Of a stretch of DNA of 64,000 bases, positions 2,758-52,995 are shown one piece after another; position 1 is the stretch's first letter; each line of letters opens with the position of its first letter. The DNA comes from a bacterium (lineage in GTDB: Bacteria; Patescibacteriota; Patescibacteriia; SG8-24), in assembly GCA_023246195.1 (NCBI GenBank), contig JAHFIW010000002.1, positions 4,259 to 68,258 of the forward strand. Reading direction: 5' to 3'. Both the position numbers and the translations under genes were made by a program. Below the pieces are notes generated by a model. That model did not search any database. It saw only the letters and a program-made list of their open reading frames with translations, and was not told the origin of the DNA.

Positions 2758-4803
2758 TTACAGTCCTGATGCAGTTTTGGCTGCGGCTGCCATCATGGCG
2801 ACGATGAGCAGGGCGGTGATGTTGAGGATCTTGATCATCGGGTTAATGGCGGGGCCGGCGGTGTCCTTGTAGGGGTCTCCGACGGTGTCGCCGGTGACGG
2901 CAGCCTGGTGGGCGAAGGACTTCTTGCCACCGTAGACGCCGGACTCGATGTACTTCTTGGCGTTGTCCCAAGCTGCGCCGCCAGTCGTCATGGAGACAGC
3001 GAGGAAGATGCCGGTGACGATGGCACCGACAAGCATGCCGCCGAGGGCTTCGATGCCGAGCTGTTGCTTGAAGAGGACGGCGACAATGATTGGAGCGCCG
3101 ATGGGGAGCAGCGCAGGGATGACCATTTCGCTGATGGCCGCCTTGGTCACGATATCCACGCATTTTGCGTATTCCGGTTTTGCCGTGCCTTCCATGATGC
3201 CGGGGATTTCACGGAATTGGCGACGGACTTCCTCTACCACGCCAGCTGCGGCGCGGCCGACGGCTTCCATCGCGATGGCGGCAAAGAGGTAGGTAACGAC
3301 GCCTCCGAGGAAAAGGCCGATGAGGACCCTTGGGTTGGACAGGTCGAAAATGGCCGGGTCGCCAAGCTTGAGCAACTCTTCCTTAAAGGAAGCGAAGAGC
3401 ACGATGGAAGCGAGGCCCGCTGAACCGATGGCGTAACCTTTGGTCACGGCCTTGGTGGTGTTGCCGACGGCGTCGAGGGGGTCGGTGATGTTGCGGACGG
3501 ATTCCGGGAGGCCAGCCATTTCGGCGATGCCGCCGGCGTTGTCGGTGATCGGGCCGTAGGCGTCGATGGCGACGATGATGCCGGTAAGCGACAGCATGGA
3601 CATCGAAGCGACGGCCACGCCGTAAATGTCAGCAAGGGAGTAGGCGCCGGCGATTGCTCCGCAGATGAGGAGCACCGGGAGCGCGGTGGAACGCATCGAG
3701 ACGGCAAGACCGGCGATAATGTTGGTGCCGTGACCGGACTGCGACGCGGCGGCGATGCGGCGAACGGGAGCGTACTCCGTCCCCGTGAAATATTCGGTGA
3801 TCACTACCAAGAGTCCAGTGACGGCCAGGCCGATGAGCGAAGCCAGATAGAGATGAAGAACCGAGTAGGAGCCGTTGTCAGCCATGAGCCACTTGGTCAC
3901 CGGCCAGAAAAGGACGGCCGAGACCAGCGAGGCGACGATGAGGCCCTTGTAGAGGGCGTTCATGATGTTCTTGGTGGCGCCGAGGCGAACAGCGAACGAA
4001 CCGGCGATGGAAGCGACGATGGAAACCGCGCCGAGCACCAGCGGATAGACGATGGCGTTCTGATTGCCCTCGAAGGTAAGCGAGCCGAGAAGCATCGCCG
4101 CGACCGCCGTGACCGCATAGGTCTCAAAGAGGTCGGCAGCCATGCCCGCGCAGTCACCGACGTTGTCACCGACGTTGTCGGCTATCACGGCCGGGTTGCG
4201 CGGGTCATCTTCCGGAATACCTGCTTCCACCTTGCCGACGAGGTCGGCACCGACGTCAGCGGCCTTGGTGAAAATGCCTCCGCCCAAGCGAGCGAATACC
4301 GAGATGAGCGATCCGCCGAAGCCAAGACCGACGAGCGCGTCGACGGCACCGGGGTTGCCCTTGGTGAGCGCGTAGAAACCGGAAACGCCAAGCAGTCCGA
4401 GGCCTACCACGAGCATGCCGGTGACCGAACCGCCGCGGAAGGCGACGTTGAGCGCATCAGCCATGCCGTTCTTGGCAGCTTCGGTCGTGCGGATGTTGGC
4501 GCGGACCGACACCTGCATGCCGATGTAGCCGGCAAGTGCGGAGAGCGAGGCTCCCACAAGAAAACCGGCAGCCGTTAAGAAGTTCAACTTCACCCAAAGG
4601 AGGACGAAGATGACGATGGCAACCATACCCGCAGACTTGTTCTGGCGGATGAGGTAAGCCGAAGCGCCTTCCTGAATGGCCTTAGCGATGGCCTTCATCT
4701 TATCGTCGCCTTCTGGTTTTGCCAGCACCCAGCGGATGAGGACTGCGCCGTAAGCGATGGCCGCCAATGCCGCAAGAATCGCGAGGAATAAAGGTGTACC
4801 CAT
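2758..4803 (-). CDS. hppA: Membrane-bound proton/sodium-translocating pyrophosphatase (V-type H+-PPase)
   Basis: ~680 aa polytopic. Hallmark motifs [19 protein letters not shown] and DNVGDNVGD. Start chosen at MGTPLF. Confidence 0.9.
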
Positions 4804-5633: not shown

Positions 5634-5883
5634 AGGGCGTCTCCTTTTTATTCCGACAAAAAAACATAGCATAATTTTGCGCGCAAGTCAACGTGCTGAG
5701 GGGTGGCCTGTGCGAAAGATGGTTGACACTACGTGGCGGGGTTGTTACCATTTTTCAGTACATTGAGGGACGGAAGAGAGGTCAAATTTACGCTTAAACT
5801 AGCGTAGAAATAGCTGCTACCATAAGAAAAGTAAGCCTTTTCATATACCTCGAGCCGCCAAAAAAATCGGCATTAAGCTCCTC

Positions 5884-7263
5884 TTGGGAGTCTTCAAAGG
5901 GTTAATGGGCTTGAAAAAGGTCTTAACCCTTTTGCTTTTGATGGTGAAGCGGCCATTTTTTTGGCTTTGTAGAGCGATTTTATACCCTTTGGTGGGGTTT
6001 TTTTACCTGGTATATCGTGTCATTAAGAAGCTGGCCCTCCGCTTATCGGAGTACATGCGTGATCGGGCCATGGGTTTATTGGCTAACCGCTACGCAATTC
6101 ACGCCATTGTGATCGTCTTGGCTTTTGCCGTGACCACTACCAATTTGCACGCTCAGGGAACCGGCACTCAACCCGATGCCAATGCGCCACAAAGCATTCT
6201 GGGCACGCTCACCCAAAATGAGGCGGATGCCGTGGTCATCGAAGAAGCTGGCTCCCAAAATGTGAATTCTTCCGAAGGTGCTGCCTACTTGGGTAGCCAG
6301 GCATTGAGCTCGCACGATTCCGCAGCCCAAGCCGATCAAAATCAGATGGATCCGTCCGCCGTAGACGTAGAGGCTTACGTCGAAGATCCCAGCGAGCTTA
6401 CGCTTTTTTCTCCGACGGCAAATGCCGTTCGCGTGCAGCCCGAAGTCGATGGCGGCAACGCTCCGTCCACTCGCAGCAAGGTTGAATCCTATGTCATTGC
6501 CGACGGTGACTCCCTTGGTTCTATCGCTCGTAAGTTTGGTCTCCGCACAGAAACCCTTTTGGCATCAAACGGACTCACCGTGCGCAGCGTGATTCACCCC
6601 GGCGACACGCTTAAGATCATGCCTGTCGACGGTGTCATTTATAAGGTGAAGTCCGGCGACACTGTCAACCGTATCGCCAATGCCTTCGGTAGCGATCCTG
6701 ACAAGATTATCGAGATGAACGGCTTGGCATCCGGCGCGGGACTGGCTCTTGGTCAGGAGCTCATTCTTCCTGATGGAAAATTGCCCGCTCCGCCGCCGCC
6801 GAAGCGTCCGTCGCGCATCGCAACCAACATAAGGGAGATTTTCGTGACGCCTCCTCCGTCACCTGACCGCGAAGACAGTTCGGATAACATGATTTGGCCA
6901 ACGGCAGTCCGCCGTATTACGCAGTACTTCGGCCATTATCGCGGAGGGTCGCGGCACACCGGTGTCGACATCGCGGGTCCGCAAGGTACGCCGGTGTACG
7001 CTGCCGAGGATGGCGTAGTCGCGCTTGCCGGTTGGAATAACGGCGGTTACGGCAACATGGTTCTCATCAATCACGGCGGCGGCATCTTCACCCGCTACGG
7101 TCACGCGTCCAAGTTGATTGCCAAAGCCGGTGACACCGTCAAGAAAGGCGATGTCATCATGCTCATGGGCACCACGGGAAACTCGACCGGCCCTCACTTG
7201 CACTTCGAGGTCATGACCGGCACTCCGCAACATCGCGTGAACCCGCTTGATTACATCAGATAA
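5884..7263 (+). CDS. LysM-domain M23 family metallopeptidase (cell-wall hydrolase), N-terminal membrane anchor
   Basis: Two LysM-like segments (GDSLGSIARKFG, GDTVNRIANAFG). M23 catalytic motifs HTGVDIA...GYGNMVLINHGGGIFTRYGH...GNSTGPHLHFEV. Confidence 0.85.
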   Translation: MGVFKGLMGLKKVLTLLLLMVKRPFFWLCRAILYPLVGFFYLVYRVIKKLALRLSEYMRDRAMGLLANRYAIHAIVIVLAFAVTTTNLHAQGTGTQPDANAPQSILGTLTQNEADAVVIEEAGSQNVNSSEGAAYLGSQALSSHDSAAQADQNQMDPSAVDVEAYVEDPSELTLFSPTANAVRVQPEVDGGNAPSTRSKVESYVIADGDSLGSIARKFGLRTETLLASNGLTVRSVIHPGDTLKIMPVDGVIYKVKSGDTVNRIANAFGSDPDKIIEMNGLASGAGLALGQELILPDGKLPAPPPPKRPSRIATNIREIFVTPPPSPDREDSSDNMIWPTAVRRITQYFGHYRGGSRHTGVDIAGPQGTPVYAAEDGVVALAGWNNGGYGNMVLINHGGGIFTRYGHASKLIAKAGDTVKKGDVIMLMGTTGNSTGPHLHFEVMTGTPQHRVNPLDYIR

Positions 7264-7350
7264 GCGTTCCGCGTGACGTATGAAAAATGGGGCTTGCAGC
7301 CTCATTTTTCATACGCAAATTTTCTTGATGTCGCTTGCGTGAAAGTAGCG

Positions 7351-8868
7351 TCAATTTCCTCGGCGTTCGCGATAGTGAATCGCTTCGGCGACGTGTGTCG
7401 CAAGGATGCCGTCCTGTCCGTCGAGGTCGGCGATGGTTCGGGCAAGCTTGATGACGCGTACGGCCGCACGCGCGGAGAGCTTGAGCCTGTTGGCAGCGGC
7501 GACGAGAAGCGAATCTGCATCGGGCGGAAGCGGGCAGAGTTTTTTGAGCATGGCGTGACTCATTTCCGCGTTGGTGAAGATCCCGTGCTTTTTGAGGCGG
7601 GCGTATTGCCGGTCACGGGCAGACTGAACCCTTTGGCGGATTACCGCGCTCGACTCTTCCTCGGAGCCGGCGAGCAGGCGACCGACGTCGACCTTAGGAA
7701 CTTCGACGTGCAGGTCTATCCGATCCAGGAGCGGGCCGGAAATTTTGCGTCCATACTTGGCGACTTGCGCGGGGTTGCAGCTGCACAGCTGATCGGGGTC
7801 GGTGGCGAATCCGCAAGGGCAGGGATTTTGCGCTGCCACGAGCATGAATTTTGCCGGCAGCCGTACTGTGCCGCTGGCTCTCGAAATAGTCACGAAACCG
7901 TCTTCCAGCGGTTGGCGCAGGTTTTCCAGAGCCGAGCGCGGGAACTCCGGGAACTCATCCAGGAACAGCACTCCGCGATGCGCCAACGTGACTTCGCCGG
8001 GCTTGGGGAATGAGCCGCCGCCGATCAGCGCCACGCCCGATGCGGTGTGATGCGGAGACCGGAACGGGCGTTCGGTCATCACCGCGCCAGCCTTGATGAT
8101 TCCCGACGCGCTGGCGATCTTGGTGACTTCGAGCATTTCCTCCTTGGTCATCGCCGGCAAAATCGAAGGCAATGCGCGCGTGAGCACGGTCTTGCCTGAA
8201 CCGGGCGGTCCGGAGAGCAATACGTTGTGTCCGCCAGCCGCCGCGATCTCCAGCGCGCGCTTCGCTTGGTGCTGGCCCACTACCGACGCGAAGTCGGCCT
8301 CGGTGCGCGCCTGCAGCAACTCCGGCAGCGGTCGCGGTTCCGACTGTTGGATGATTTCCGCGCGCGTGAAGTGGGCGATCAGTTGCGACAGTGAGCTAAT
8401 CGCGAATACGCGAACGCCGGAGGCGAGAGTCGCTTCTCCGGCATTTTCTTTTGGCACGTACAGTTCGTCGATGCCGCGTTCCGAAGCCATCAGCGCGATC
8501 GACAGCACTCCAGCAACCGGCCGCACGCTGCCATCAAGCGCGAGTTCTCCGACGAACAGCCGATTCGGATTTTTGTGGCGCGGCACCGCCCCGCTCGCTT
8601 CGAGTATGGCCACCGCAATCGGCAGATCATACGACGGGCCTTCTTTTTTGATGTCGGCAGGAGCCAGGTTCACGGTGATGCGCGTGCGTGGAAAGGGGAG
8701 TCCTCCGTTCTTAAGCGCTGTCTTGATGCGCTCCTTCGATTCTTGCACTGAAGCGTCCGGGAGGCCGACAATGACGAAATTGGGCAAGCCCTGAGCGATG
8801 TCAGCTTCGACATCTACGGGAGAGGCATCGATGCCGACGAGGGCGGCGGATTGGATGGTTGCGGGCAT
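7351..8868 (-). CDS. comM: YifB/ComM family Mg-chelatase-like AAA+ ATPase
   Basis: N-terminal Lon-protease-like domain, Walker A GPPGSGKT and a C-terminal Mg-chelatase domain. Start chosen at MPATIQSAALVG. Confidence 0.85.
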   Translation of the reverse strand: MPATIQSAALVGIDASPVDVEADIAQGLPNFVIVGLPDASVQESKERIKTALKNGGLPFPRTRITVNLAPADIKKEGPSYDLPIAVAILEASGAVPRHKNPNRLFVGELALDGSVRPVAGVLSIALMASERGIDELYVPKENAGEATLASGVRVFAISSLSQLIAHFTRAEIIQQSEPRPLPELLQARTEADFASVVGQHQAKRALEIAAAGGHNVLLSGPPGSGKTVLTRALPSILPAMTKEEMLEVTKIASASGIIKAGAVMTERPFRSPHHTASGVALIGGGSFPKPGEVTLAHRGVLFLDEFPEFPRSALENLRQPLEDGFVTISRASGTVRLPAKFMLVAAQNPCPCGFATDPDQLCSCNPAQVAKYGRKISGPLLDRIDLHVEVPKVDVGRLLAGSEEESSAVIRQRVQSARDRQYARLKKHGIFTNAEMSHAMLKKLCPLPPDADSLLVAAANRLKLSARAAVRVIKLARTIADLDGQDGILATHVAEAIHYRERRGN

Positions 8869-12420: not shown

Positions 12421-14631
12421 CTACTGCTGTTCGGGGCGCGTGCTGCCGGTACCGCTTCCCGGGGTGGACTGTACCTGCGGCAATCCGAGCTCCTGCATGG
12501 CGCGCTTGTGCGAGAGGTTCACGCGGCCAAGTTCGTCAATCTCGATGACCTTCACCGGGATGACATCACCGATCTTGACGATGTCGGTCACCTTGGCGAC
12601 GCGCCACGGTGCCAGCTCCGAGATGTGCACCAGGCCGTCCTTGCCCGGCACGAGTTCCACGAAGGCTCCGAAATCCATGATGCGGACGACCTTGCCTTCC
12701 TTGAACAGTTCGCCTGCCGCGACTTCACGGGTGAGGTCCTTGACCCACTGCAGGGCGCGATCGAGGTTGGCCTTGTTGTTGGAGCAGATGGTGATGGTCC
12801 CGTCGTTCTCCACGTCCATCGACACGCCTGTCTCCTCGATGATCTGATTGATGATCTTGCCGCCAGGGCCGATGACGTTGCGGATGTTCTCGGGGTTGAT
12901 TTTGAGCGTCTCGATGCGCGGCGCGTACGGAGAGAGGTCGGGGCGCGGTGCCGCGATGCACTTTTCAATTACGTCGAGAATTTGCAGGCGTGCGGTGCGA
13001 GCCTGGTTAAGGGTCTCTTCGACGATCTTGGGCGTGAGGCCTTTGGTCTTGGTATCGAGCTGGATGGTGGTGATGCCCACGCGGGTACCTCCGACCTTGA
13101 AGTCCATGCCGCCGTCGCCGTCCTCGAGGTCCTGCAAGTCCGTGAGGATCTTGTAGGCGCCGGTGGACTCGTCGGAGGCAAGGCCCATGGCGAGACCGGC
13201 GACCGGGCGCTTGATGGGCACTCCCGCATCCATGAGCGCGAGCGTTGAGCCGCAGATGGCTCCCTGCGAGCTGGATCCGTTGGAGGACAGCACTTCGGAG
13301 ACCACGCGGATGGTGTAGGGGAACTCTTCCTTGCTGGGGAGCACCGGCATGAGCGCTCGCTCAGCCAAGCCGCCGTGACCGATTTCGCGGCGACCGGCGC
13401 CGCCGATGCGGCCGGTTTCGCCGACCGAGTACGGAGGGAAGTTGTAGTGATGCATGTAGCGCTTCTTGCCGACTTCTTCCATGCCGTCCAGGATCTGCGC
13501 ATCACCCGGGGAGCCGAGCGTGGCGATGGAAAGCACTTGCGTGTCACCGCGAGAGAACAGGCCCGTGCCGTGGACGCGAGGGAGAATGGCGACATCGGCA
13601 ACGAGCGTGCGGATCTCGGTCAACGACCGTCCGCCGACGCGCTCGCCGCGTTCCAGGATGGCGCGCGTGACCGCGGCCTCGACGATGTCATCGAATGAGT
13701 GCGAGGCGTGCTTGCGGAGGTCTTCGTCGACGCCGGCAGTTTCGAGATGCGCCTCGAGCTCGCGGCGCAGCGCGTTCAGCGAGTTGCGGCGCTCTGTCTT
13801 GTTGATGTTGGCACCGGCAAAAAGCACTTCGGGGAAGCGCGTGTGCAAGAAGGCCGTTGCCTTGGCGACGACTTCTTCCTTGGCTTCGAGAATGCTGACA
13901 TTGCCTTCGGCCTTAACCATCAGCTCGCGCGCCTCGATCTTCTTTCGACCGACGGACGCGACGGCCTGCTTGATGAGATCCGTGACCTCGCGGAGATGCT
14001 TCTGGCCGAACATGATGGCCTCGTACATGTCTTTCTCGGAGACTTCTTTGGAGTTGGCTTCGATCATGAGAGCCTTCTCCGTGGTGCCGGCGACGATCAC
14101 GTCGACGTCACTTTTTGCGCGCGCTTCGAACGTGGGGTTGATGACCCACTCGCCGGCAACGCGTCCGATGCGAATGCCTCCGATGGGACCTTCCCAGGGG
14201 ATGTCGCTCATCGCCAACGCGGCGGATGCGCCCACGAGCGCCGGAATGTCCGTGTCGTTTTCCAGATCCGCAGAAAGACACTCGATGACCACCTGCACGT
14301 CATGGCGCACGCCATACGGGAAGAGCGGACGAATGCTGCGGTCGATGATGCGACCGGTCATGACCGCTTCGTCGGTTGGGCGGCCTTCGCGCTTGATGAA
14401 GCGCGAGCTCTTGATCTTGCCTGCCGCGTAGAGTTTCTCTTCGTATTCCACGGAGAGCGGGAAGAAATCCACGTTCTCGCGCGCCTTGGAAGCGAGCGTC
14501 GCTGTCGCCAAAATCACGGTGTCGCCATAGCGGACCGTGCACGAGGCGTTGGCCTGAAGGGCCATGCGTCCCGTTTCGATGGTGAGGGTCTTGCCGCCCC
14601 ACTCGGCCTGGAAGCTTTTGACTTCCGTCAT
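12421..14631 (-). CDS. pnp: Polyribonucleotide nucleotidyltransferase (PNPase)
   Basis: Two RNase PH domains, KH and S1 domains at the C-terminus. Canonical rpsO-pnp neighbourhood. Confidence 0.95.
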
Positions 14632-14854
14632 ACGTTTTGCACCGACATCTCGCGTCATCCGAAAGCTTTAGACCATAGCAGGTCCGCTGCCGGTCTACGT
14701 GTCTTCGGGCGATGCTTCGCGTCGGCGCGGTTAAAGTACGTTTTCTCAAATCGCTTATCGGCATGTGGCCGAAAACCGCTTCGCAAGACGACGTCCGTCT
14801 TCCGTGGCGATTTCCGGCCGCGTGATCGGAAAGGCGCAATCGCGCCGAGAGAAT

Positions 14855-15580
14855 CTAGTCGAGCTTGAGGTCGTCGGCCGGCGGCGGGAGTTCGTTTGCT
14901 GCGGATGCCGGCGTTCGTCGCGGCGACTGCGAGTTCTTGCGCGGCGGACGCGGCGTCGAGGGACGCAGTGCCGATCGTGTCGTCGTCGGTCGCGGCGTCG
15001 TGGTCACCGTTCGTCCGCCAGTCGTGCGCGGCGCGGCGGACGGTCGATCTCCGCGGGCCGTGTTCTTTGAGGCGCCGTCCTGCGGAGGCCTGATCAGGTA
15101 TCGCTCCAAGTCTTTGGAAAGGTCGGTGAAGTCGTCCACGGCATCCTTGAGCTTGGAGGAGGTGGTGTTGCCGAAGGCGATGACTTCCACCTGGCGTCCA
15201 TGGTGCTTAAGGTACTCTACCAGCTCCACGAAGTCCCCGTCGCCGGTGACCAGGATGACCACGTCGAGAATTTCACCGATGCGGATGGCATCAACGGCAA
15301 TGCCTACGTCCCAGTCCGCCTTCTTGGCGCCGGAGTCGAAGATCTGTAACGGGCGCTTTTTTGTTTCAAGTCCGCGCTGAAACAGCGCATCGAAGAAAGG
15401 CGTTTCTTCGCCCGTCGCCTCTACGACGTAGGCGATGGCGCGGATGAGCTGGCGTCCGGCGACCGCCGTTTCCAAAATGGCACCAAAGTCGACTTTCGAG
15501 TTGAAAAGGTTCTTTGCCGAGTAATACATGTTCTGCACGTCGATAAAAACGCCGACACGCTGCGCCTTGTGTTTGATCAT
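14855..15580 (-). CDS. NYN-domain (LabA/DUF88-like) putative RNase with Pro/Thr/Arg-rich disordered tail
   Basis: The N-terminal ~150 aa match the NYN/PIN-like fold (VFIDVQN, ILVTGDGDF). The C-terminus is low-complexity. Inserted between rpsO and pnp. Confidence 0.7.
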   Translation of the reverse strand: MIKHKAQRVGVFIDVQNMYYSAKNLFNSKVDFGAILETAVAGRQLIRAIAYVVEATGEETPFFDALFQRGLETKKRPLQIFDSGAKKADWDVGIAVDAIRIGEILDVVILVTGDGDFVELVEYLKHHGRQVEVIAFGNTTSSKLKDAVDDFTDLSKDLERYLIRPPQDGASKNTARGDRPSAAPRTTGGRTVTTTPRPTTTRSALRPSTPRPPRKNSQSPRRTPASAANELPPPADDLKLD

Positions 15581-15658
15581 AAAATGGCCGATTTATGGGT
15601 CTGATGACCCGGTGAAACGTGAGAACGCCGGCACGAGGCCGGCGTTCATCGGATATCG

Positions 15659-15925
15659 TTATGCGGAAATTTTGAGAGCCTCCGACAATTCGACGTATCC
15701 CTTGGCGTCTTCGCGCTTCAGGTACTTGAGAAGACGGCGGCGCTCGCTGACCTTGCGCATAAGGCCCTTCCTGGAGGAAAAGTCCTTCTTGTGCGCGAGG
15801 AGGTGGCCGGTAAGATCCTTGATCTCAGCCGTAAGGATGGCGATTTGAACCTGAGGGGAGCCAGTGTCCTTGTCGTGAGTCTTGAATTTCTCAATGATCT
15901 TCTCTTTTTGGCGCTTGTCCAACAT
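15659..15925 (-). CDS. rpsO: 30S ribosomal protein S15
   Basis: 88 aa. Motifs GSPQVQIAILTAEIKDLTGHL..HKKDFSSRKGLMRKVSERRRLLKYL are canonical for S15. Confidence 0.95.
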   Translation of the reverse strand: MLDKRQKEKIIEKFKTHDKDTGSPQVQIAILTAEIKDLTGHLLAHKKDFSSRKGLMRKVSERRRLLKYLKREDAKGYVELSEALKISA

Positions 15926-16221
15926 ATTATGTGGTGCCTCCGGCAGCAGCCGTGGCTATTCGCGAACGACCCAGGATTAACCAAGTCGTCGTATGAGTTA
16001 CCTGCCGATGGTAACAGCATACTTAGGCTTTGTAAAGGGGTGTTTTGAGGGTAAAGAAGCGAACGTCAGCATTGACAATTTGCTCAAATGTGCCATATTG
16101 AGCCCGTTCTTCATTATGAAGACGAACGTGCAAGGCGTAATCCTTGTCCTTTCTACTCGGGAAACTCAAGCGCTGGCTATAAGGCTGTCACGTGAGCATA
16201 TCGAGGAATGAAGGCTTCATC

Positions 16222-16740
16222 ATGTCGCACCTTACTTCCGATCAGATTGCAGAGCTCATTGCCATCGACAACCGATGTCCCGGTATCCGCAAGGAAGTCC
16301 AGGAGCTGATTTGTCAGCTGACCTCTGGCAGCAAGGTCAAGAATCTTGCGCAGATGGTTGCCCTCGGCAATTACGACTACGTCAACGAGGACATCGTCGA
16401 GAGGAACTTCCCGACGGACCCCGTTCGCTTTACGACAGGGGGGACGAAGGTCTTTCTCCTCAGCCACGAGATGACCACGGCGCGACTCAAAGAGACGATG
16501 GTCGGAAACGGCTGCGAGCCCGGCTTGATCGAGAGTCTCCTCGCCTATGGTGCGGAACATCCTGAGGAGCAGAGGGATCACCCCATCGTCGCACTGGGTT
16601 CCTCCTGGGTGAGCTCCAACGGCCATCGCTACGTCCCGTACTTGTACGGAGGCCGCAGTCAGCGCGGACTGCACCTAGACCGTGGCGGCTCAGAGCGCCG
16701 TTGGGGTACGGATTGCCGGTTCCTCGCCCGTTGCAAGTAA
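16222..16740 (+). CDS. Uncharacterised conserved protein, paralog 1 of a two-member family in this window
   Basis: 172 aa, ATG at 16222 preceded by GAGGAATGAAGG. ~50% identical over the C-terminal ~130 aa to the 51952..52524 product: LAQMVA.G.YD..N.DI.E.NF ... MTTA ... ELLAYGAE.PEEQR..PIVALGSSWV ... RFLAR.K. Gly/Arg-rich tail. Confidence 0.6.
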   Translation: MSHLTSDQIAELIAIDNRCPGIRKEVQELICQLTSGSKVKNLAQMVALGNYDYVNEDIVERNFPTDPVRFTTGGTKVFLLSHEMTTARLKETMVGNGCEPGLIESLLAYGAEHPEEQRDHPIVALGSSWVSSNGHRYVPYLYGGRSQRGLHLDRGGSERRWGTDCRFLARCK

Positions 16741-16784
16741 CCCTCGGACGTTTGGGTTCTTAGTTCTGGCCCTCGGCCCCGTTT

Positions 16785-16820
16785 CCGTCCGCTACTTTGG
16801 TAGTGGACGGAATTTTTTAT
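16785..16820 (+). terminator. Intrinsic terminator of paralog 1
   Basis: Hairpin CCGTCCGCTAC-TTTG-GTAGTGGACGG followed by AATTTTTTAT. Confidence 0.6.
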
Positions 16821-16890
16821 TTGAGACGAAACAGCTTGTGGCTACGGTTGCAGGCGGTCAAAGCTGGGTTCAAACGATTTCCTGAATGAC
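16821..16890 (+). other. Conserved non-coding element, copy 1, immediately 3' of the terminator
   Basis: ~85% identical to 52621..52693: TTGAGACGAAACAGCTTGTGGCTACGGTTGCAGGCGGTCAAAGCTGGGTT...GAATGACG. A 1-nt indel relative to copy 2 argues against coding. Confidence 0.45.
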
Positions 16891-16949
16891 GTACGATGCC
16901 TCGCGTTCCGCTTCCGCAGGTGCGTCGCATAACGTATACTACTAACCGT

Positions 16950-17897
16950 ATGGCCAAATCATCCGAGCTCATCACCGATTATCTCAGTTATCTCGAGGTC
17001 GAGCGCAACCGTTCCGAACGGACGGTCAAGAATTATGATTTTTATCTGCGCCGCTTCTTTGCCTGGGCCAAAGACGCCCAACCTGAAGCAATCACCCTCG
17101 ACATGGTCCGTGCCTATCGCATCTGGCTCAACCGCTACAAGAATGATCAGGGCCAAGGAATGAAGAAGAATACCCAAAATTATCACCTCATCGCCCTTCG
17201 TTCTTTTCTCAAGTACCTGGCAAAACGCGACATTAAGACGCTGGCTCCCGAAAAAATCGAGTTGGCACGCATGCCCGAGCGCTCCGTGGAGTTTTTGGAC
17301 GCTCCGGAGCTGGAACGCTTGCTGGCGGCACCTCTTGATGGGGCAAAGGCGGTCGACAATAACGTCTCCATTTTGCAGCTTCGCGACAAGGCCATCCTCG
17401 AGATGCTCTTTTCAACCGGTTTGCGCGTGTCGGAATTGGCCGGCCTCAACCGAAAAATCATCAATTTGCAGCGCGAGGAGTTCACCGTTCGCGGAAAAGG
17501 GGACAAGCCGCGCGTGGTGTTCATGTCTCAGCAGGCCAGATATTGGCTTAAGCAGTACCTTGACCGCAGACGAGACGTGGAACCGGCGATCTTCGTCAGC
17601 CACGACCGAGCGGCTAACGGACGCGACACTGTCGGCGGGCTCACCCCGCGCAGCATTCAGCGCACGGTCGAGCACTATGCTACGGCCGCTGGCATCACCA
17701 AACGCATCACTCCCCACACTGTCCGCCATACCTTCGCTACCGATTTATTGCGCAATGGAGCCGATATTCGCAGCGTTCAGACTCTTTTGGGGCACGCCTC
17801 CATCACTACCACCCAAATCTACACGCATATCACTGACGAACGTTTGAGGGAGGTATATAACAGCTTCCATGGCAAGCGGCGGAAAAAAGACGGATAG
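16950..17897 (+). CDS. xerC: Tyrosine recombinase, XerC/XerD family
   Basis: N-terminal SAM-like core-binding domain (ITDYLSYLEVERNRSERTVKNY). C-terminal catalytic R..H.R..Y (RHTFATDLL...LGHASITTTQIYTHI). An alternative upstream start lies at 16896. Confidence 0.85.
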   Translation: MAKSSELITDYLSYLEVERNRSERTVKNYDFYLRRFFAWAKDAQPEAITLDMVRAYRIWLNRYKNDQGQGMKKNTQNYHLIALRSFLKYLAKRDIKTLAPEKIELARMPERSVEFLDAPELERLLAAPLDGAKAVDNNVSILQLRDKAILEMLFSTGLRVSELAGLNRKIINLQREEFTVRGKGDKPRVVFMSQQARYWLKQYLDRRRDVEPAIFVSHDRAANGRDTVGGLTPRSIQRTVEHYATAAGITKRITPHTVRHTFATDLLRNGADIRSVQTLLGHASITTTQIYTHITDERLREVYNSFHGKRRKKDG

Positions 17898-17981
17898 GAC
17901 CCTTCAGCGTTGACGGCGGCGCAAAGTACTGATACCTTGCGCTGGTGTAGTGTCACTGACGGGATGGCCGGGAACGATCAT

Positions 17982-43727: not shown

Positions 43728-44132
43728 TTATGTCGTCGTGAGAGAGTTGGAGAGCGCGGTGATGACGAAGTTGGTGATGGCGTAAGCGGCAAAGATGAGG
43801 ACCATGCCGATGACCGCATTGGAAATCATCTTCTTGGCCTGCTTCACCTTCTCGTCGTTGCCTTGGGCGGTCATCCAGAGGAATCCGGCATAGATGATGA
43901 TGCAAACGAGGATAACACCGAGCAGTCCGAGAGCGGCACCGATGAGGTTGCCGATGAGCTTAGAGATATCATTCGTGCCGCCTGCATTGACGCCCGCCGA
44001 TGTGGCAGTAATGCCCGCGCTGGCCTTCATGTTATCAAGGCTGGTGGTCGCAAGGACGGCGAGAGGGGCGGAGATGCTGCCGATTGCGGCGAGCGATCCG
44101 GCGACGATGCTCTTTAAGGAAATCTTCTTCAT
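43728..44132 (-). CDS. TrbC/VirB2-like type IV secretion pilin family protein (CPR 'T4SS_pilin' type), paralog 1
   Basis: Signal peptide, then two TM helices flanking the conserved loop IYAGFLWMTAQGNDEKVKQAKK. Confidence 0.6.
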   Translation of the reverse strand: MKKISLKSIVAGSLAAIGSISAPLAVLATTSLDNMKASAGITATSAGVNAGGTNDISKLIGNLIGAALGLLGVILVCIIIYAGFLWMTAQGNDEKVKQAKKMISNAVIGMVLIFAAYAITNFVITALSNSLTTT

Positions 44133-44213: not shown

Positions 44214-44618
44214 TTACTTCGAAAGCGCTGTGCTTAGGGAACTAATAACGACATTCGTGATAGCGTATGAAGCAAATATTAGCACAAGTCCAACAACTGC
44301 GCCAGAGAGGAGCTTCTTGGCCTGCTTCACCTTCTCGTCGTTGCCTTGGGCGGTCATCCAGAGGAATCCGGCATAGATGACGAGGGCCACGAAGACCACG
44401 CCGAGCAGGCTGAGTGCGGCACCGATGAGGCTGCCGACAATCGTGGGGAGATCGGTTGCCGTTCCCCCGACGCCCGCGGCTCCCGCCGTCGCAGAGAGTC
44501 CGGAAATATCGCTTAAATTGGCTGATGGCGCGGCTAAAGCTTTGGCCGCAAAGAGCATTGAGGCGACGATTGTCCCAGATGTCGCGGCACCTTTAGTTGT
44601 CGTGCTTGAGATGCGCAT
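44214..44618 (-). CDS. TrbC/VirB2-like pilin family protein, paralog 2
   Basis: Same architecture. Shares a 68-bp perfectly identical stretch with paralog 1. Confidence 0.6.
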   Translation of the reverse strand: MRISSTTTKGAATSGTIVASMLFAAKALAAPSANLSDISGLSATAGAAGVGGTATDLPTIVGSLIGAALSLLGVVFVALVIYAGFLWMTAQGNDEKVKQAKKLLSGAVVGLVLIFASYAITNVVISSLSTALSK

Positions 44619-45620: not shown

Positions 45621-46169
45621 TTAAGAAGATGCGGTTCCGAGAGCGGCGAACAGCGCGTTCAGGAGAATGAAGGAGCCGAAGATGACAAGGAGGCCGATGA
45701 CCGCCCACTTGAGGCTGTTGAGTCCCTCGGCGTACTTTTTTTCGTTGCCGCCTGCGGTGATCATCTTGAATCCGCCATAGACGAAGGCAAGGAGGGCGAA
45801 GCTGCCGGAGAGTCCCATCAAGAGATTGGTGGCGCGACCGACAAGTTGGCGGATGGTGATGTTGCCGAGCGGGTCAACGAGCATGGTCTTTGCGGGAGGC
45901 TTGGTTGCCGCCGCGGCGGCAGCGGCGGCGCTTGTGCACGATGCGTCTGGTTGGCAGAAGCATTGCTTGCCGCCGCAGGCGGAAGAGGTACAGTTCAATT
46001 TTGCCTCGCAATCAGCCTGGTCAGCGAAGCAGCCAGTGGCCGGCGCTTTCGGGTCACCAAAGTTGCATTTTACGGCAGCTAGGACAACCGCCGGCGCGAG
46101 GAACCAAACAATCGCGGTAATCGCGGCAACTTTACGGACGGTCACGGAAAACGGGCGGTTCGACGTCAT
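45621..46169 (-). CDS. TrbC/VirB2-like pilin family protein with N-terminal Cys-rich extracellular extension, paralog 5
   Basis: Cys-rich segment (CNFGDP..CFADQADCEAKLNCTSSACGGKQCFC) then FVYGGFKMITAGGNEKKYAEG pilin core. Confidence 0.5.
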   Translation of the reverse strand: MTSNRPFSVTVRKVAAITAIVWFLAPAVVLAAVKCNFGDPKAPATGCFADQADCEAKLNCTSSACGGKQCFCQPDASCTSAAAAAAAATKPPAKTMLVDPLGNITIRQLVGRATNLLMGLSGSFALLAFVYGGFKMITAGGNEKKYAEGLNSLKWAVIGLLVIFGSFILLNALFAALGTASS

Positions 46170-46180
46170 AGTGTTCGCGA

Positions 46181-46744
46181 TTATGGGGTGGGAGCAACGG
46201 GAACGGCTTCCTGTGCGGCGGCCTTGAGCTCGTCCGGCGTCAGCGGGATGCAGCATTGGCCGGCAGATCCACAGCCGCTGTAGACCGTGCTGCAGTCGCG
46301 CCCTTGAGTGGGGTCACTCATGCACTGATATCCAGACGGCGCCATATCGGTACAGGAAGTCGCTTTCACCTGCCCCTTGGTGAGCCGCAACTTGATGTAA
46401 TCGATGATGTATCCCGCGAGGAAGATGAGGATGATGCCGATGACCGCGTTAGTGAGAATGGTCTTGCCCTCCGAGACCTTTTTTTCTGCGCCGTTCGAGG
46501 TGATCATGGTGAAGCCTCCATAGACGAACATCAGCAGGGCGAAGCTACCAGTGACCGCGATGATGAGCGAGGCGACGTTGAGAAAGGTCTCTTCGATGCA
46601 GCCGAGACCCGGCGCGTTAACGCCCTGATTGGTGGCGCAGGGCGGGACGATGGTCGTGGCCAGTGCCGGCATGGCGGCGAAGGCGAAACTCGCGATCATC
46701 GCAACAGTGGCAATTATGGCGTAGGGTCGGTGGCTGTTGCGCAT
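46181..46744 (-). CDS. TrbC/VirB2-like pilin family protein with C-terminal Cys-rich extension, paralog 6
   Basis: MFVYGGFTMITSNGAEKKVSEGK pilin core, followed by a Cys-rich tail (CTDMAPSGYQCMSD..CSTVYSGCGSAGQCC). Confidence 0.5.
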   Translation of the reverse strand: MRNSHRPYAIIATVAMIASFAFAAMPALATTIVPPCATNQGVNAPGLGCIEETFLNVASLIIAVTGSFALLMFVYGGFTMITSNGAEKKVSEGKTILTNAVIGIILIFLAGYIIDYIKLRLTKGQVKATSCTDMAPSGYQCMSDPTQGRDCSTVYSGCGSAGQCCIPLTPDELKAAAQEAVPVAPTP

Positions 46745-46769: not shown

Positions 46770-48200
46770 TCACTTAATCGTTTGATTGACCTTAGAGGCG
46801 CCGAGCTCGAGGATCTTGGTGGGATCGGCATTGCCGGCGAGCATCTGACGAATCATGTCTTGGAACGCCTGCTCGGTAGCTACCGCGTCCGTTCCATGAT
46901 ACCAGCTTTTGGCTGCCGATTCTTGAGAGGCAAACACGTTCAGGTCAAGGTCTTGCAGTTGGTCGTTGACCAGGCTGCGCAGGGCAGCCGGCTGGTGCGT
47001 CTTTGCCAGGTAAGACTTCACGTTTTCCGGTTTTGCCATGAATTCCACGAAGTCCCAGGCCTCGTTTGGATTTTGTGTCTTGGAAGTGACCGCGTTTATC
47101 CAGTAGTTGGGATAGTAGATGGGCTTGTTGCCTTCGATCTGCGGGAAGGACGAGACGCCGAAGTTCAGCTTGGGGTTGGCGAGACGTATCTGCGCCATGT
47201 GGTAGGAATAGCCGAAGAAAAATGCGGTTTGGCCGTTCTCAAAGGCCTGCAATGAGTTCGGCATCTTATCGTTCCAGGTGTAGACCTCCTTCACCGGGTT
47301 GGCGAAGTCGGTGTAGAAAATGAGCGCTTCTGCTCCTGGAGGAAAGGGACGTCCCGCGAGCTCTGGCGGGTACCGGTCAAAGGTCACGGTTCCGGAGTCG
47401 TCGGTCATGTTCGCGCCGTTTTGCATCATGAGCAGGCTCAGCACGTCCGTACCGCGCTCCACGTTGTCGGCGGTACCCAGTGCCACGCCGGACTGGATGA
47501 TGGTGCCTGTCTGGTCCAGCTTGGTGATTTTTTTGACTTGGTCCTGAAAGGTTTTCCAGTCGCCTGCGGGTTGCGCGATGCCTGCGCGGTTGAGGAGGTC
47601 TTTGTTGTAGTAAAGTGCCATCGTGTCTACAGAGAGCGGCAGTCCGTAGATTTTCGGTATCAGCGGCATCTTGGGATCGGCTTGCGCGGTGAGCATCACG
47701 GCATCCTGCGAGACCACGTCAACGTAATCGTTGGCCAGCTGCTTGAGGGTGATGCCCGGATTGCTGTGGATCACCGTCACTGCCTGCTTTTGGATGGTGC
47801 CTTGGATTTCGCGGTAGGCCAGGGTCAGCGTCTGCGGTACCGGCATCAGCTCCGGCTGGAAACGATGCATCCATGTTGCCGGCAGGCTGACGATGTCCGG
47901 CCCCTGGTCTTCAGCGAGCGCGTTGAGGATCTGCTTTTCGTACTCGTCATAGGTCAGGCGCTTGAAGTCGAAGCTGACATTGTGGTGAATCGCCTGGTAA
48001 GCGGTGAACGCGTCACCGAACGAATCCGCATCGTCATAGACGCTCCAGAACTTGAGGGTGATGGGCTTGGTCTTTTGCGCCACCTGCGCATTAGGGAAAA
48101 GCGTGCAGCCGAATCCGCCAAGAACCAGCAGCGTAGCGAGACCTGCGAGCAAGGTGAGTGCGGAGAACCGCCGTGAGGAGTTGCGTAGCATATTGGTCAA
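46770..48200 (-). CDS. Extracellular solute-binding protein (SBP family 1, sugar-type) lipoprotein
   Basis: Lipobox LGGFGC. MalE-like two-lobe SBP length and motifs. No permease or ATPase adjacent. Confidence 0.8.
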   Translation of the reverse strand: MTNMLRNSSRRFSALTLLAGLATLLVLGGFGCTLFPNAQVAQKTKPITLKFWSVYDDADSFGDAFTAYQAIHHNVSFDFKRLTYDEYEKQILNALAEDQGPDIVSLPATWMHRFQPELMPVPQTLTLAYREIQGTIQKQAVTVIHSNPGITLKQLANDYVDVVSQDAVMLTAQADPKMPLIPKIYGLPLSVDTMALYYNKDLLNRAGIAQPAGDWKTFQDQVKKITKLDQTGTIIQSGVALGTADNVERGTDVLSLLMMQNGANMTDDSGTVTFDRYPPELAGRPFPPGAEALIFYTDFANPVKEVYTWNDKMPNSLQAFENGQTAFFFGYSYHMAQIRLANPKLNFGVSSFPQIEGNKPIYYPNYWINAVTSKTQNPNEAWDFVEFMAKPENVKSYLAKTHQPAALRSLVNDQLQDLDLNVFASQESAAKSWYHGTDAVATEQAFQDMIRQMLAGNADPTKILELGASKVNQTIK

Positions 48201-49195: not shown

Positions 49196-50674
49196 TTAGC
49201 GGAACAGTACGGTTTCGTTTACCGAGCTTACGGCCTGAGCCACGATTGGCTGGTATTCCGGCGCTAAGAAGGTGGGATACGTCTCAATCATCAGGTTGAA
49301 GGCGGCTTCCACCTTGCCGTAGTCGGTGCCCTTGTACCAGCTTTTTGCGGTGAGCACTTGTCCTGCGAAGGGGGCAATGTCGGGATCGGTAAGCTGCGAT
49401 CCGATGAGCCCGCGCAATGCCGTGGGGCGCTTCGTTGCCGTGAGGAACGTCCCCACCTGATCGGGGCCGGTGATGAACTGAAGGAAGTCCCAGGCTTCGT
49501 CGGGGGCAAGGGTCTTCTTGGAGACCACCTCGACCGGATAGTGCAGCACGTTCACGGGGTTGCTGGTATCGACTTGCGGCAGCGGCGCGACTCCGAAGTC
49601 GATCTTTGCGCTGCGGTCGCGGATCTTGGCCGCGTCTGAGGGGTAGCCGAAGTAGAAAGCGGTCTTGCCGGCGATGAAGGCGTCGAGCGATTGCGGCATT
49701 TGGGCGTTCCAGGAGTAGTTGCTGGAAGTGGGGATGGCAAAGCTCTGATAGAAGATCAGCGCTTCTATGCCGGGCGGAAACTGCTTGCCTTGGGTCGCAG
49801 GCGTGAAATTGGCAAAATTCGCGTAGCCGCTGTCGTCGGCCATCATCGCGCCGTTCTGCCACATGATGGCCGACAAGATGTCGACGTTGTTCATCACGTT
49901 CTTGCCGAGGCCGAGGGCTGCGCCTGACTGCTTGATGACCTTGGGTGCGTCTGGTGCGGGGACGTTCGCGGGGGCGGCGTTGACGTTGGCCGCATTCACG
50001 TTTGCGGCGGCGGGGGCCGGCGTGGTGTCGAAGATGGTCAGTTTGGCGGCATCAGCCTGCACGTCTTGCCAGGTTACCGGCGGTTTATCGATGCTGCCGC
50101 GTTTGAGGATGTCGCGATTGTAAAAAAGTGCCAGCGTGTCGGCGGAGAGCGGCAGCCCCAGAATGTGACTGGTGGGCGCGGTTCCCGGCTTGTCTGTGAC
50201 GGAGATGATGAGGTCTTTGGTGATGCCTTCCACGTAGCGGTTGGTGAAGTCCAGGATGCTCATGGTCGGCTGCTTCTGCTTGACCGTGACGATCTGCTTT
50301 TGCGCGTTGACCTGCTGTGTGGCCACAGTCGTCTCCTTGGGCATCGGCAGGAGTTTCGGCGTCCACTCGCCCAGCCAGGTGTTGGGGACACTGAAGATGT
50401 CCGGTCCCTTGTTCAGCGCGAAAGCTTCGAGCAAGGTGCGGTCGTAGTCTTCCTCTCGTTGCGTGGTCACGATGACATTCACGTTGGGGTGCAGCTTTTC
50501 GTACGCGGCTATCGGCGCGTCGAGCGCGGACGGGTCATCCTGAATGCGCCAGTATTGAAGGGTGACGGGCTTGAGCTGCACGGATGAGTTGCCTCCCAAC
50601 AGGGGGCAGCCCGCACCGACGAGCAACAATGATGAGACAAAGGCGGCAAGAGGGAGGAATTTCCGCATATTCAT
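49196..50674 (-). CDS. Extracellular solute-binding protein (SBP family 1) lipoprotein, paralog of 46770..48200
   Basis: Lipobox LLVGAGC. Shares motifs with the neighbouring SBP (ALIFY..FA, AFYFGY). Confidence 0.8.
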   Translation of the reverse strand: MNMRKFLPLAAFVSSLLLVGAGCPLLGGNSSVQLKPVTLQYWRIQDDPSALDAPIAAYEKLHPNVNVIVTTQREEDYDRTLLEAFALNKGPDIFSVPNTWLGEWTPKLLPMPKETTVATQQVNAQKQIVTVKQKQPTMSILDFTNRYVEGITKDLIISVTDKPGTAPTSHILGLPLSADTLALFYNRDILKRGSIDKPPVTWQDVQADAAKLTIFDTTPAPAAANVNAANVNAAPANVPAPDAPKVIKQSGAALGLGKNVMNNVDILSAIMWQNGAMMADDSGYANFANFTPATQGKQFPPGIEALIFYQSFAIPTSSNYSWNAQMPQSLDAFIAGKTAFYFGYPSDAAKIRDRSAKIDFGVAPLPQVDTSNPVNVLHYPVEVVSKKTLAPDEAWDFLQFITGPDQVGTFLTATKRPTALRGLIGSQLTDPDIAPFAGQVLTAKSWYKGTDYGKVEAAFNLMIETYPTFLAPEYQPIVAQAVSSVNETVLFR

Positions 50675-51951: not shown

Positions 51952-52524
51952 ATGGGAAAGAATCGTGAGTTCGTCAGCGCATCCGGCACGGCATACGACG
52001 TCGTGCAGAAGCTCGCCCAGGCCGTCTACGCCCGGGGCGGGGACGACGACAGCATCCGCCGGGTCATCTCCGACGAGGCGCTCCGAGGCAAGCTGGCCGA
52101 CCTCATCGTCGGCACTGCGGCCAGGACCCTCGCCCAGATGGTCGCCGCCGGCCGCTACGACTGGGCCAACTCGGACATCAACGAGAAGAACTTCAAAGTC
52201 AGCGCCGAGCGGTTCACCGCCGACGGCCTCGAGGCCATCCATTTCGGCAAGGTGATGACCACCGCACAGGTCGAGATCAATCTCGACCGTCGCGGCCTGC
52301 GTTCGGCCTGGATCGAGGAACTCCTCGCCTACGGCGCGGAGAACCCCGAGGAACAGCGCAAGTTCCCGATCGTCGCCCTCGGTTCCTCATGGGTGAATCC
52401 CGGTGGCGGCCGCGGCGTCCTGGACCTGTGCGGGGGCGGCGGTCGGCGCGGGCTGAGCCTGCGCTGGGGCGGCCCCGGGTGCCGCTGGGACGCGGACTAC
52501 CGCTTCCTCGCCCGTCGCAAGTAG
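51952..52524 (+). CDS. Uncharacterised conserved protein, paralog 2 (very GC-rich copy)
   Basis: 190 aa, ATG at 51952 preceded by AGGAGAGAG. ~50% identical to the 16222..16740 product. ~70-75% GC versus ~57% for the window. Confidence 0.6.
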   Translation: MGKNREFVSASGTAYDVVQKLAQAVYARGGDDDSIRRVISDEALRGKLADLIVGTAARTLAQMVAAGRYDWANSDINEKNFKVSAERFTADGLEAIHFGKVMTTAQVEINLDRRGLRSAWIEELLAYGAENPEEQRKFPIVALGSSWVNPGGGRGVLDLCGGGGRRGLSLRWGGPGCRWDADYRFLARRK

Positions 52525-52568
52525 CCCTGGGGCGCTTGGGCGCTTAGTCCTGGCCCTTTGGCCCTTAT

Positions 52569-52604
52569 CTGGCCGCGAACTCAGTTCGCGGCCAGACTTT
52601 TTTA
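52569..52604 (+). terminator. Intrinsic terminator of paralog 2
   Basis: CTGGCCGCGAAC-TCAG-TTCGCGGCCAG + ACTTTTTTTAT. Same position as copy 1's hairpin but a different sequence (compensatory). Confidence 0.6.
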
Positions 52605-52620
52605 TGCTAAAATCGAAACG

Positions 52621-52693
52621 GATGAGACGAAACAGCCTGCGGCCACGGTTTCAGGCGGTCAAATCTGGGCCCGGGCGATCTTCCGGAATGACG
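52621..52693 (+). other. Conserved non-coding element, copy 2
   Basis: GATGAGACGAAACAGCCTGCGGCCACGGTTTCAGGCGGTCAAATCTGGGCC...GGAATGACG, homologous to 16821..16890. Preceded by a partial internal duplication AATCGAAACG. Confidence 0.45.
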
Positions 52694-52752
52694 CGCGACA
52701 CGTCGCGTGCCAGCGCGAATTCGTCGGAGGCGGCAGGTTCTGGAAGGCGATG

Positions 52753-52950
52753 GGCGGCGACGCGGATCATGCTGGCCCCACGACGACTTCCTCCGACACC
52801 CGCGCCTACGTGAAGTACCTTCTGCGGGAGGGGAGCGCCACCGAGAAGCGGGAACTGCTCGCCAACCTGAAGAGCAGGCTGACGTACAAGGACAAGACGG
52901 TGACGCTGCTGGATGCCAGCCCCGTCGCGATCATCTCGGCCTCTTCGTAG
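52753..52950 (+). CDS. Possible small GC-rich ORF (66 aa) downstream of the conserved element
   Basis: GGAAGG-N5-ATG. GC3-rich codons. Ends 15 nt before a strong terminator. The longer 52558 ORF overlaps the non-coding element and is rejected. Confidence 0.3.
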   Translation, partial: GGDADHAGPTTTSSDTRAYVKYLLREGSATEKRELLANLKSRLTYKDKTVTLLDASPVAIISASS

Positions 52951-52965
52951 AGCACCGCAGGAACA

Positions 52966-52995
52966 ACAAAACGCCCCGCGCAGGGGCGTTTTGTT
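52966..52995 (+). terminator. Intrinsic terminator
   Basis: AAAACGCCCCGCGCAGGGGCGTTTTGTTTT. Confidence 0.5.

Follow-up and report, generated by a model that had tools for sequence, protein, structure and literature searches.

The ~70-nt non-coding element that occurs twice in the 64-kb stretch of DNA analysed here (the window) matches part of a structured leader RNA, namely of its 5′ domain; in related loci this leader stands immediately upstream of the template repeat (TR) of a diversity-generating retroelement (DGR). The two window copies are probably the remnants of decayed DGR cassettes, in which a truncated 5′ domain of the leader has outlasted the TR, the accessory variability determinant (Avd) and the reverse transcriptase (RT). 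The leader itself constitutes an RNA family that matches no Rfam family and is new relative to the literature searched. A sequence-only reading of the same DNA had described a selected, structured, non-coding element with a connection to the protein encoded upstream, all of which agrees with the present results, whereas its suggestions as to the nature of the element, a ribozyme-like core or a common regulatory leader of the downstream genes, do not.

Within the window, the element is found at 16815-16909 and 52605-52722, and these are the sole matches. When the window is compared with itself by BLAST, 16524-16909 pairs with 52308-52711 (70.5% identity over 404 nt) and no second comparable repeat pair is seen, so that the two copies recognized by the sequence-only reading are indeed present and are the only such pair. 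The other direct repeats returned by the same search, namely 43762-43954 / 44245-44437, 45678-45806 / 46421-46549, 47576-47645 / 50089-50158 and 47121-47431 / 49556-49866, are 65-80% identical over 70-315 nt and unrelated to the element. The duplicated unit comprises the 3′ two-thirds of a protein-coding gene and ~170 nt of the adjoining 3′ flank, in which a post-stop tract, a hairpin with a T-run, the ~70-nt element and a less conserved tail follow each other in this order.

The identity of the upstream genes provides the first clue to the origin of the element. Their products of 172 and 190 aa belong to no Pfam, NCBIfam or PHROG family, and a word-indexed search of 5.8 billion proteins yielded only 11 relatives of the upstream protein, two of which are encoded on contigs that also carry bAvd and RVT_1 genes. 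Another 160 loci came from pattern-based scans, and nearly all of these are in metagenome-assembled genomes of Patescibacteria (CPR). In one of the loci, L002, the C-terminal 135 nt of the gene recur ~370 nt downstream, and all of the differences (19/19) fall on adenines of the second copy; in related loci there are 14-25 such mismatches, again almost all at TR adenines (25/25, 24/24 and 21/21 in individual cases). An adenine-specific pair consisting of a variable repeat (VR) within a gene and a TR alongside it is the hallmark of a DGR. The AF2 model of the window target protein (pLDDT 87.6) points in the same direction, with all of its top 50 PDB matches being C-type lectin-like domains, the usual fold of DGR targets, although the matches are weak (E 2.5e-3 to 4e-2, TM 0.3-0.5). 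As judged by sequence homology, the window genes are homologues of DGR targets with proven VR/TR pairs; they have the same 3′ end as these targets (…RFLARxK, CGCAAGTAG) and the same downstream tract. The connection between the RNA and the upstream protein that had been proposed from the sequence is thereby given a concrete form, as the protein family consists of the targets that are diversified by the retroelement of the RNA.

Unlike the related loci, which among them have every component of a canonical DGR cassette, the window lacks TR, Avd and RT throughout its 64 kb. A tblastn search with the family RT gives nothing below E=2.5 in the window, tblastn likewise finds no Avd, and a BLAST search with the VR-like regions of the two genes (VR1 and VR2) for a TR returns in each case only the other VR. 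The mismatches between VR1 and VR2 involve all four bases, and the two are therefore not current products of one TR. When the window VRs are compared with the TRs of other loci, the mismatch rate in the longer alignments is highest at TR adenines, 0.5-0.67 as against 0.15-0.37, which is only a hint given that the alignments are short and the TRs non-cognate.

The tract that follows the stop codon is a feature of most of the loci (L002-L167) and consists of four to seven tandem 8-9-nt units of the form nnCTTGGn, with CTCGG, CTTTG, CTTAG and CCTGG as variants. It is situated in the first ~60 nt after the target stop, before the terminator hairpin, and since it is present with or without a leader or TR, it is to be counted with the target gene, as part of its 3′ end. 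A retrohoming recognition element or a protein-binding array are possible roles; we know of no description of such a tract. The two window copies of the tract are ~80% identical.

In intact loci, the components follow the same order: target gene, terminator, extended -10 promoter, a ~230-nt leader, TR, a second terminator, avd on the minus strand and RT. This order holds in all 45 of the related loci that have a TR. A profile of the leader, spanning everything from the terminator to the TR, gives 79 matches, every one of them on the target-gene strand and just downstream of a target gene. Among the non-redundant loci with enough flanking DNA, the leader is present in 45 of the 45 with an adenine-specific TR, 44 of which also have Avd or RT, and no locus has a TR without the leader. 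A further 47 homologous target genes have neither leader nor TR, and the leader is thus not generally required beside a target. The distance from the end of the element to the TR is nearly constant (~150-165 nt; ~226-258 nt in most loci when measured from the start of the element), whereas that from the stop codon to the element varies from ~90 to 307 nt, which indicates that the element belongs to the transcription unit of the TR and not to the upstream gene. The family consensus has an extended -10 sequence, TGnTAnAAT, ~6 nt before GGAUAGUAGAC, followed by ~230 conserved nt leading into the TR, and as the differences from the TR fall on the adenines of the leader strand, the RNA is transcribed in that direction.

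The leader of intact loci such as L109 and L035 has two covariation-supported domains, 5′ and 3′, and a AAAAAUGAAG segment. Intact leaders with their TR are found for example at L109 1339-1760 and L035 6620-7030 and in ~40 other loci, and none is found in the window. A second subtype of the leader 5′ end, with GACAAATGAAAAATC..GGTYACGGCT in place of GGATAGTAGAC..., occurs in L014, L028, L032, L043, L044, L047, L090, L092 and L151, and it is still detected by a covariance model built from the first subtype. In 621 kb of sequence from loci outside its seed, the covariance model of the 5′ domain detects another 17 copies, and it gives not a single match in the 47 loci without a leader.

The evidence that the 5′ domain is a folded RNA comes from comparison of homologues. 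Folded on its own, the window element is no more stable than its shuffles on either strand (z = +0.3 to +1.1), and the structure is consequently supported by homologous sequences only. In an RNAalifold analysis of 35 aligned sequences including both window copies, the 5′ domain forms four helices: P1 (GGA/UCU) and P2 (GAC/GUC), the P3 hairpin, in which ~9 bp are capped by a YAMG loop, and the long P4 hairpin. Compensatory changes are found in 22 of the 27 pairs. Base pairing is retained in 94.5% of the alignment cells, compared to 72% upon column shuffling and at most 54% after displacement of the pairing partners by one to three columns; covariation is scored at 0.756 as opposed to 0.30 and 0.25, respectively, and none of 500 shuffles reaches any of the observed measures. 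Selection on structure, which had been proposed together with a check of covariation among homologues, thus finds strong support in that very comparison. The 3′ domain is built as a 12-bp long-range helix around two hairpins, with 20 of 24 pairs showing compensatory changes.

Between the two domains lies an A-rich segment, AAAAAUGAAGAUACUU, which is complementary to the 10-15 nt directly after the TR. The pairing covaries from locus to locus, as in UGAAGC/GCUUCA, UAAAGA/UCUUUA, UAACA/UGUUA and CUAGAAGA/UCUUCUAG, and the mean duplex energy within a locus is -9.24 kcal/mol, compared to -6.04+-0.43 for permuted partners, with the observed value reached in none of 20000 permutations. The resulting helix between AAAAAUGAAGAUACUU and the post-TR bases closes a single loop that contains both the 3′ domain and the TR. 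A hairpin with a U-run comes within ~15 nt of the TR, and next to it avd ends, being encoded on the opposite strand, which leaves no room for a downstream spacer of ~140 nt. The RNA of an intact locus accordingly runs from the leader through the TR into a short terminator hairpin.

The leader can be compared with the spacer RNA of the phage BPP-1 DGR. Both are structured non-coding RNAs contiguous with the TR, in the presence of Avd and RT, and in both a duplex is formed across the TR, here between the middle segment of the leader and the post-TR bases and in BPP-1 as the 'cPRT Stop' pairing of upstream and downstream sequences. Their presumed role is also the same, namely the organisation of the RT-Avd-RNA particle and of the cDNA start. 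The position, however, is reversed, as the BPP-1 spacer consists of ~140 nt 3′ of the TR, whereas here ~230 nt are located 5′ of it and only a short terminator hairpin 3′, and the window copies have no TR at all. Nor is there any match in sequence or structure in either direction. The Rfam model RF03022 (Phage_DGR), which as a positive control recovers the BPP-1 spacer with 104.7 bits (gathering threshold 50 bits) at 2750-2882, adjoining the TR at 2887-3020 and lying between TR and brt, has no match on the window, on either copy (E<=10), on an intact leader with its TR (E<=1) or on 10 intact loci, and the leader covariance model in turn has no match in BPP-1. The retron msr-msd is likewise a structured RNA encoded beside a reverse transcriptase. 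Retron RNAs combine template and primer in one molecule, are bounded by inverted repeats and prime from a branching G; neither the inverted-repeat bounds nor branching-G priming is seen here, no retron family of Rfam gives a match, and the retron lacks both Avd and the VR/TR logic.

The RNA of BPP-1 is known to require segments on both sides of the TR, and the search for similar elements in other DGRs by the same authors was confined to the 40 nt before and the 100 nt after each TR (Handa et al.; PMC6182149; bioRxiv 10.1101/2023.10.23.563531). The RT-10 motif represents the BPP-1-type spacer, RF03022 (Weinberg et al. 2017, PMC5737381), and a Patescibacteria-restricted 'DGR clade 2' has been delineated (Roux et al. 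2021, PMC8144416). In the literature searched, no description of a ~230-nt upstream leader in Patescibacteria DGRs was found, although it may have been described earlier.

Taken together, these features suggest how the leader could work in an active cassette. It would be transcribed from its own extended -10 promoter, directly 3′ of the terminator of the target gene, with transcription continuing into the TR. Its middle segment pairs just 3′ of the TR, which places the leader by the required cDNA start site, and the leader could there take over the job performed by the downstream spacer in BPP-1, that is, holding the RT-Avd complex and positioning template and primer. It is from this proximity to the cDNA start site, and by analogy with BPP-1, that we infer a permuted arrangement, in which what the spacer does in the phage falls to the leader.

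The window copies contain only the first portion of such a leader. A profile HMM built from 30 loci, with the window sequences excluded, matches the window at 52598-52722 (E=1.8e-11, HMM positions 15-139 of 274) and at 16824-16889 (E=1.1e-4, HMM positions 44-108 of 274) for a searched space of ~1.3 Mb. The covariance model, run with filters off, detects these two sites alone in the 64 kb, copy 2 with 68 and copy 1 with 44 bits, the seed alignment of the model having contained both copies. Both are located on the target-gene strand, directly 3′ of the terminator of the target gene. The ~70-nt element corresponds to helices P2-P3, together with P4, of the leader 5′ domain. Copy 2 has the promoter sequence, which a deletion has removed from copy 1, and neither copy contains a TR, a 3′ domain or the TR-pairing segment.

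Copy 2 is the more complete of the two. Its target gene (51952..52524, plus strand, as are all features of both copies; 190 aa, P0005) ends in a VR-like region at ~52382-52524 and is followed by the CTTGG-type repeat tract at 52525..52567 and a terminator-like hairpin of 13 bp with a T-run at 52568..52603. At 52605..52613, TGCTAAAAT aligns to the family TGnTAnAAT and is the predicted leader promoter, ~6 nt 5′ of the leader start. A -35/-10 scanner gives no promoter at either copy, and the assignment is therefore based on the alignment to the family extended -10 consensus. The leader relic, at 52620..52722, retains the complete 5′ domain, with the homology ending at ~52722. P1 (GGA 52620-52622, UCU 52664-52666) forms only with a shortened internal loop, P2 (GAC 52626-52628, GUC 52658-52660) has 3/3 pairs, P3 (52635-52656) 9/9 and P4 (52681-52719) 11/12. 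A 66-aa ORF at 52750-52950 on the same strand begins ~28 nt 3′ of the relic and is followed by a terminator-like hairpin at ~52962-52995. It has no family in Pfam, NCBIfam or PHROGs, and a 52%-identical stretch is found on the minus strand of L160 (676-789), immediately upstream of another target gene.

In copy 1, the target gene (16222..16740; 172 aa, P0001), whose homologues carry VR/TR pairs, has its VR-like C-terminal region at ~16598-16740, ending in the conserved ...CGGTTCCTCGCCCGTTGCAAGTAA. The post-stop tract at 16741..16782 contains approximately five tandem 8-9-nt nnCTTGGn-type units (CTCGG, TTTGG, CTTAG, TCTGG and CTCGG), and the intrinsic-terminator-like hairpin at 16783..16822, with 13 bp, a T-run and a fold z-score of -3.7, ends the target gene. 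The leader relic at 16823..16909 is identified by the profile, the covariance model and the alignment alike. P2 (GAC 16825-16827, GUC 16857-16859) and the P3 hairpin with its UACG loop (16834-16855) are fully paired, with 3/3 and 9/9 pairs, respectively, whereas P4 is a remnant at ~16880-16909 with 7/12 pairs and P1 retains 1/3. Between 16820 and 16821, copy 1 lacks 16 nt that are present in copy 2, and with them it has lost its -10 box and start site as well as one strand of P1, the 5′ one.

The conservation between the two copies is unevenly distributed. The element core is 89% identical (41/46), compared to an amino acid identity of ~50% for the upstream proteins, 60% for the third codon positions of identical amino acids and 48-57% for four-fold sites; P4 is only ~60% identical, and the terminator stem sequences are entirely different, even though the hairpin itself is kept in both copies. 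The core is thus conserved above its surroundings, as the sequence-only reading had observed, together with the protein identity of ~50% and a drift of the terminators which now turns out to be a complete turnover of the stems. The element is evidently non-coding, also as had been supposed, as no ORF common to both copies is found in six-frame translation, a 1-nt indel between the copies breaks every frame and the changes in the best frame are mostly non-synonymous. The differences between CTTGTGGCT and CCTGCGGCC, which had been thought to fit paired positions, do so: they are mostly U/C changes opposite a G in helix P3 and thus leave the structure undisturbed. All five differences in the core are compatible with the structure, although a sample of five is not statistically informative.

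A recent gene conversion between the paralogous loci, or mere chance, might in principle account for such likeness with no selection on the element. Both loci belong to the same genome, and they resemble each other only over the 3′ portion of the gene and its flank, as would be expected for conversion, but the patchiness of the conservation, with unrelated terminator stems and a strongly diverged P4 next to a nearly identical core, is not, and no continuous high-identity tract is present between the copies. Moreover, the conserved blocks in the window coincide with those conserved throughout the family, and chance is excluded by the profile E-values. We regard this explanation as highly improbable. 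If the window copies are relics, their likeness would instead go back to the time of active cassettes, when strong selection acted on the leader from which they descend.

The genes downstream of the element do not appear to be its clients. The element had been read as a common leader or riboregulator of xerC and of the small ORF, and more generally it could be a cis-regulatory leader, a promoter region or a dif-like recombination site for these genes. This is suggested by position only, as copy 1 ends 40-60 nt before the xerC start (at 16950, or at 16896 as called) and copy 2 ends ~28 nt before the 66-aa ORF. In ~60 other loci, however, the element follows target genes, whatever the next gene is, and is itself followed by the TR, not by xerC or the 66-aa ORF, and in the syntenic locus L008 xerC is found on the opposite strand, past the TR. 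In addition, a -10-like TATACT at 16935-16940 is located between the relic and the xerC ATG, and the xerC mRNA thus need not include the relic. A role for the element in the expression or recombination of the downstream genes is accordingly considered very unlikely. The TATACT is positioned 9 nt upstream of the likely xerC ATG at 16950, a start supported by alignment to the L008 XerC; the recorded gene call has its start at 16896 instead, within the decayed P4 of the copy 1 relic.

A small self-cleaving ribozyme, with GAGACGAAAC ... CUGAAUGA as a hammerhead-like core, had also been suggested, together with an Rfam run on both copies. At the gathering threshold, Rfam finds only five tRNAs in the whole window, and at E<=10 the two copies give nothing but noise, with no Phage_DGR, retron or ribozyme family, hammerheads included. 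The likeness is a superficial one between two short strings, both of which lie in joining regions and vary across the 35 homologues, the site of GAGACGAAAC reading GAAUC, GAUUU, UAAUA and others, and the covariation-supported P1-P4 fold has the architecture of neither a hammerhead nor a twister or a pistol. A ribozyme is therefore practically out of the question. Both candidates were rejected, the ribozyme for the missing Rfam match and the variable core strings and the xerC leader for the genomic context in ~60 loci.

The interpretation of the window copies as remnants of decayed cassettes is in line with the degradation seen in related genomes. With neither avd nor RT nor TR, and devoid of the 3′ domain and the TR-pairing segment, the copies are unable to support retrohoming themselves, and we infer that they have no present function. 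Different stages of decay are represented elsewhere: L008 has a leader with a decayed TR and no Avd or RT, while L022 has a full leader only. The break points of partial leaders also differ, with that of L058 stopping at HMM position 180 and that of L139 at 93, and the first target of L003 being followed by a fragment that covers positions 55-237. The latter has no TR next to it, and the VR of this target is not matched to the resident TR. In L003 (256-1171), an orphan target with a leader relic is thus seen beside an active-looking, intact DGR with a second target, leader, TR, Avd and RT. In L074 and L075, TGATATACT fits the extended -10 box ~90-110 nt after the stop, 3′ of the terminator, with no leader next to it, and these may be relics in which the promoter alone has survived.

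A possible decay route is suggested by L008 (Patescibacteria bacterium STA_35), of which 5764-7918 is syntenic with 12500-17900 of the window. The 745-aa gene, NYN, S15 and xerC are 52-78% identical between the two by tblastx, the leader of L008 is full-length and its decayed TR has 17/30 mismatches at A. In L008, xerC has the reverse orientation compared with the window, and the target module flanks it on the opposite side. The lineage of the window may have lost its TR through a rearrangement at this site.

Certain observations do not sit easily with functionless relics and would rather suggest that the truncated 5′ domain still functions without a TR of its own. The identity of the core exceeds not only that of the synonymous sites but also that of all 240 comparable pairs of family loci with proteins 45-55% identical (mean 0.61, maximum 0.87), and thus of any comparable pair of functional leaders, and its few differences are structure-compatible. 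Both copies also lose homology at about the same point, on the 3′ side of P4, for which truncation before duplication is the simpler explanation. More extensive decay would then be expected of a functionless relic, and the long retention of the fragment without a TR would imply a function of its own, the truncated form itself having been duplicated and then kept. If each copy instead lost its cassette recently and independently, the common end point is a coincidence. Furthermore, copy 2 has an apparently intact promoter, TGCTAAAAT, and all four helices, and the inferred start at 52620 and the terminator-like hairpin beyond the 66-aa ORF would delimit a ~370-nt unit that includes this ORF. Finally, the window covers 64 kb of a 74.8-kb contig, with ~570 nt of an rnpA region recovered beyond one end, and an RT-Avd-TR cassette may be present in another part of the genome. 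The retained function could take the form of a stand-alone small RNA or a 5′ UTR expressed from the promoter of copy 2, of a site at which an RT-Avd complex from another locus of the genome docks or is decoyed, or of a cis element letting a distant DGR act on both window genes.

On the other hand, copy 1 is devoid of the -10 box, start site and P1, with P4 reduced to 7/12 pairs; the relics in other genomes break at differing positions; 47 target genes do without any leader; both copies are without the segment whose pairing partner adjoins the TR; and five differences are too few for structural neutrality to be informative. A retained, TR-independent function is thus unlikely, albeit worth serious consideration. 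Somewhat more doubtful again is the composite model in which the leader is an RNA family with permuted spacer function and its 5′ domain has in addition been selected at both window loci for a template-independent role, which would be that of a docking or decoy RNA for RT-Avd or of a cis mark for a distant retroelement. The decay of two cassettes remains the reading that we favour.

No natural system diversifies proteins to a greater extreme than DGRs, which are common in Patescibacteria. To our knowledge, the sole mechanistic model of their action derives from one phage, in which a downstream spacer organises the RT-Avd particle and primes cDNA synthesis. In the loci described here, a leader helix clamps the 3′ end of the template and a downstream spacer has no place; if the leader replaces the spacer, the RNA architecture of the DGR would be permuted in a whole clade, and the leader would, if this is true, give concrete constructs for reconstitution. 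The leader is also a sensitive marker for DGR cassettes, including decayed ones beside 'orphan' variable-protein genes, which helps to separate active hypervariable from fossil loci in metagenome-assembled genomes. The instance in the window, itself most likely a fossil, is therefore valuable as a pointer to a covariation-supported leader RNA of Patescibacteria DGRs.
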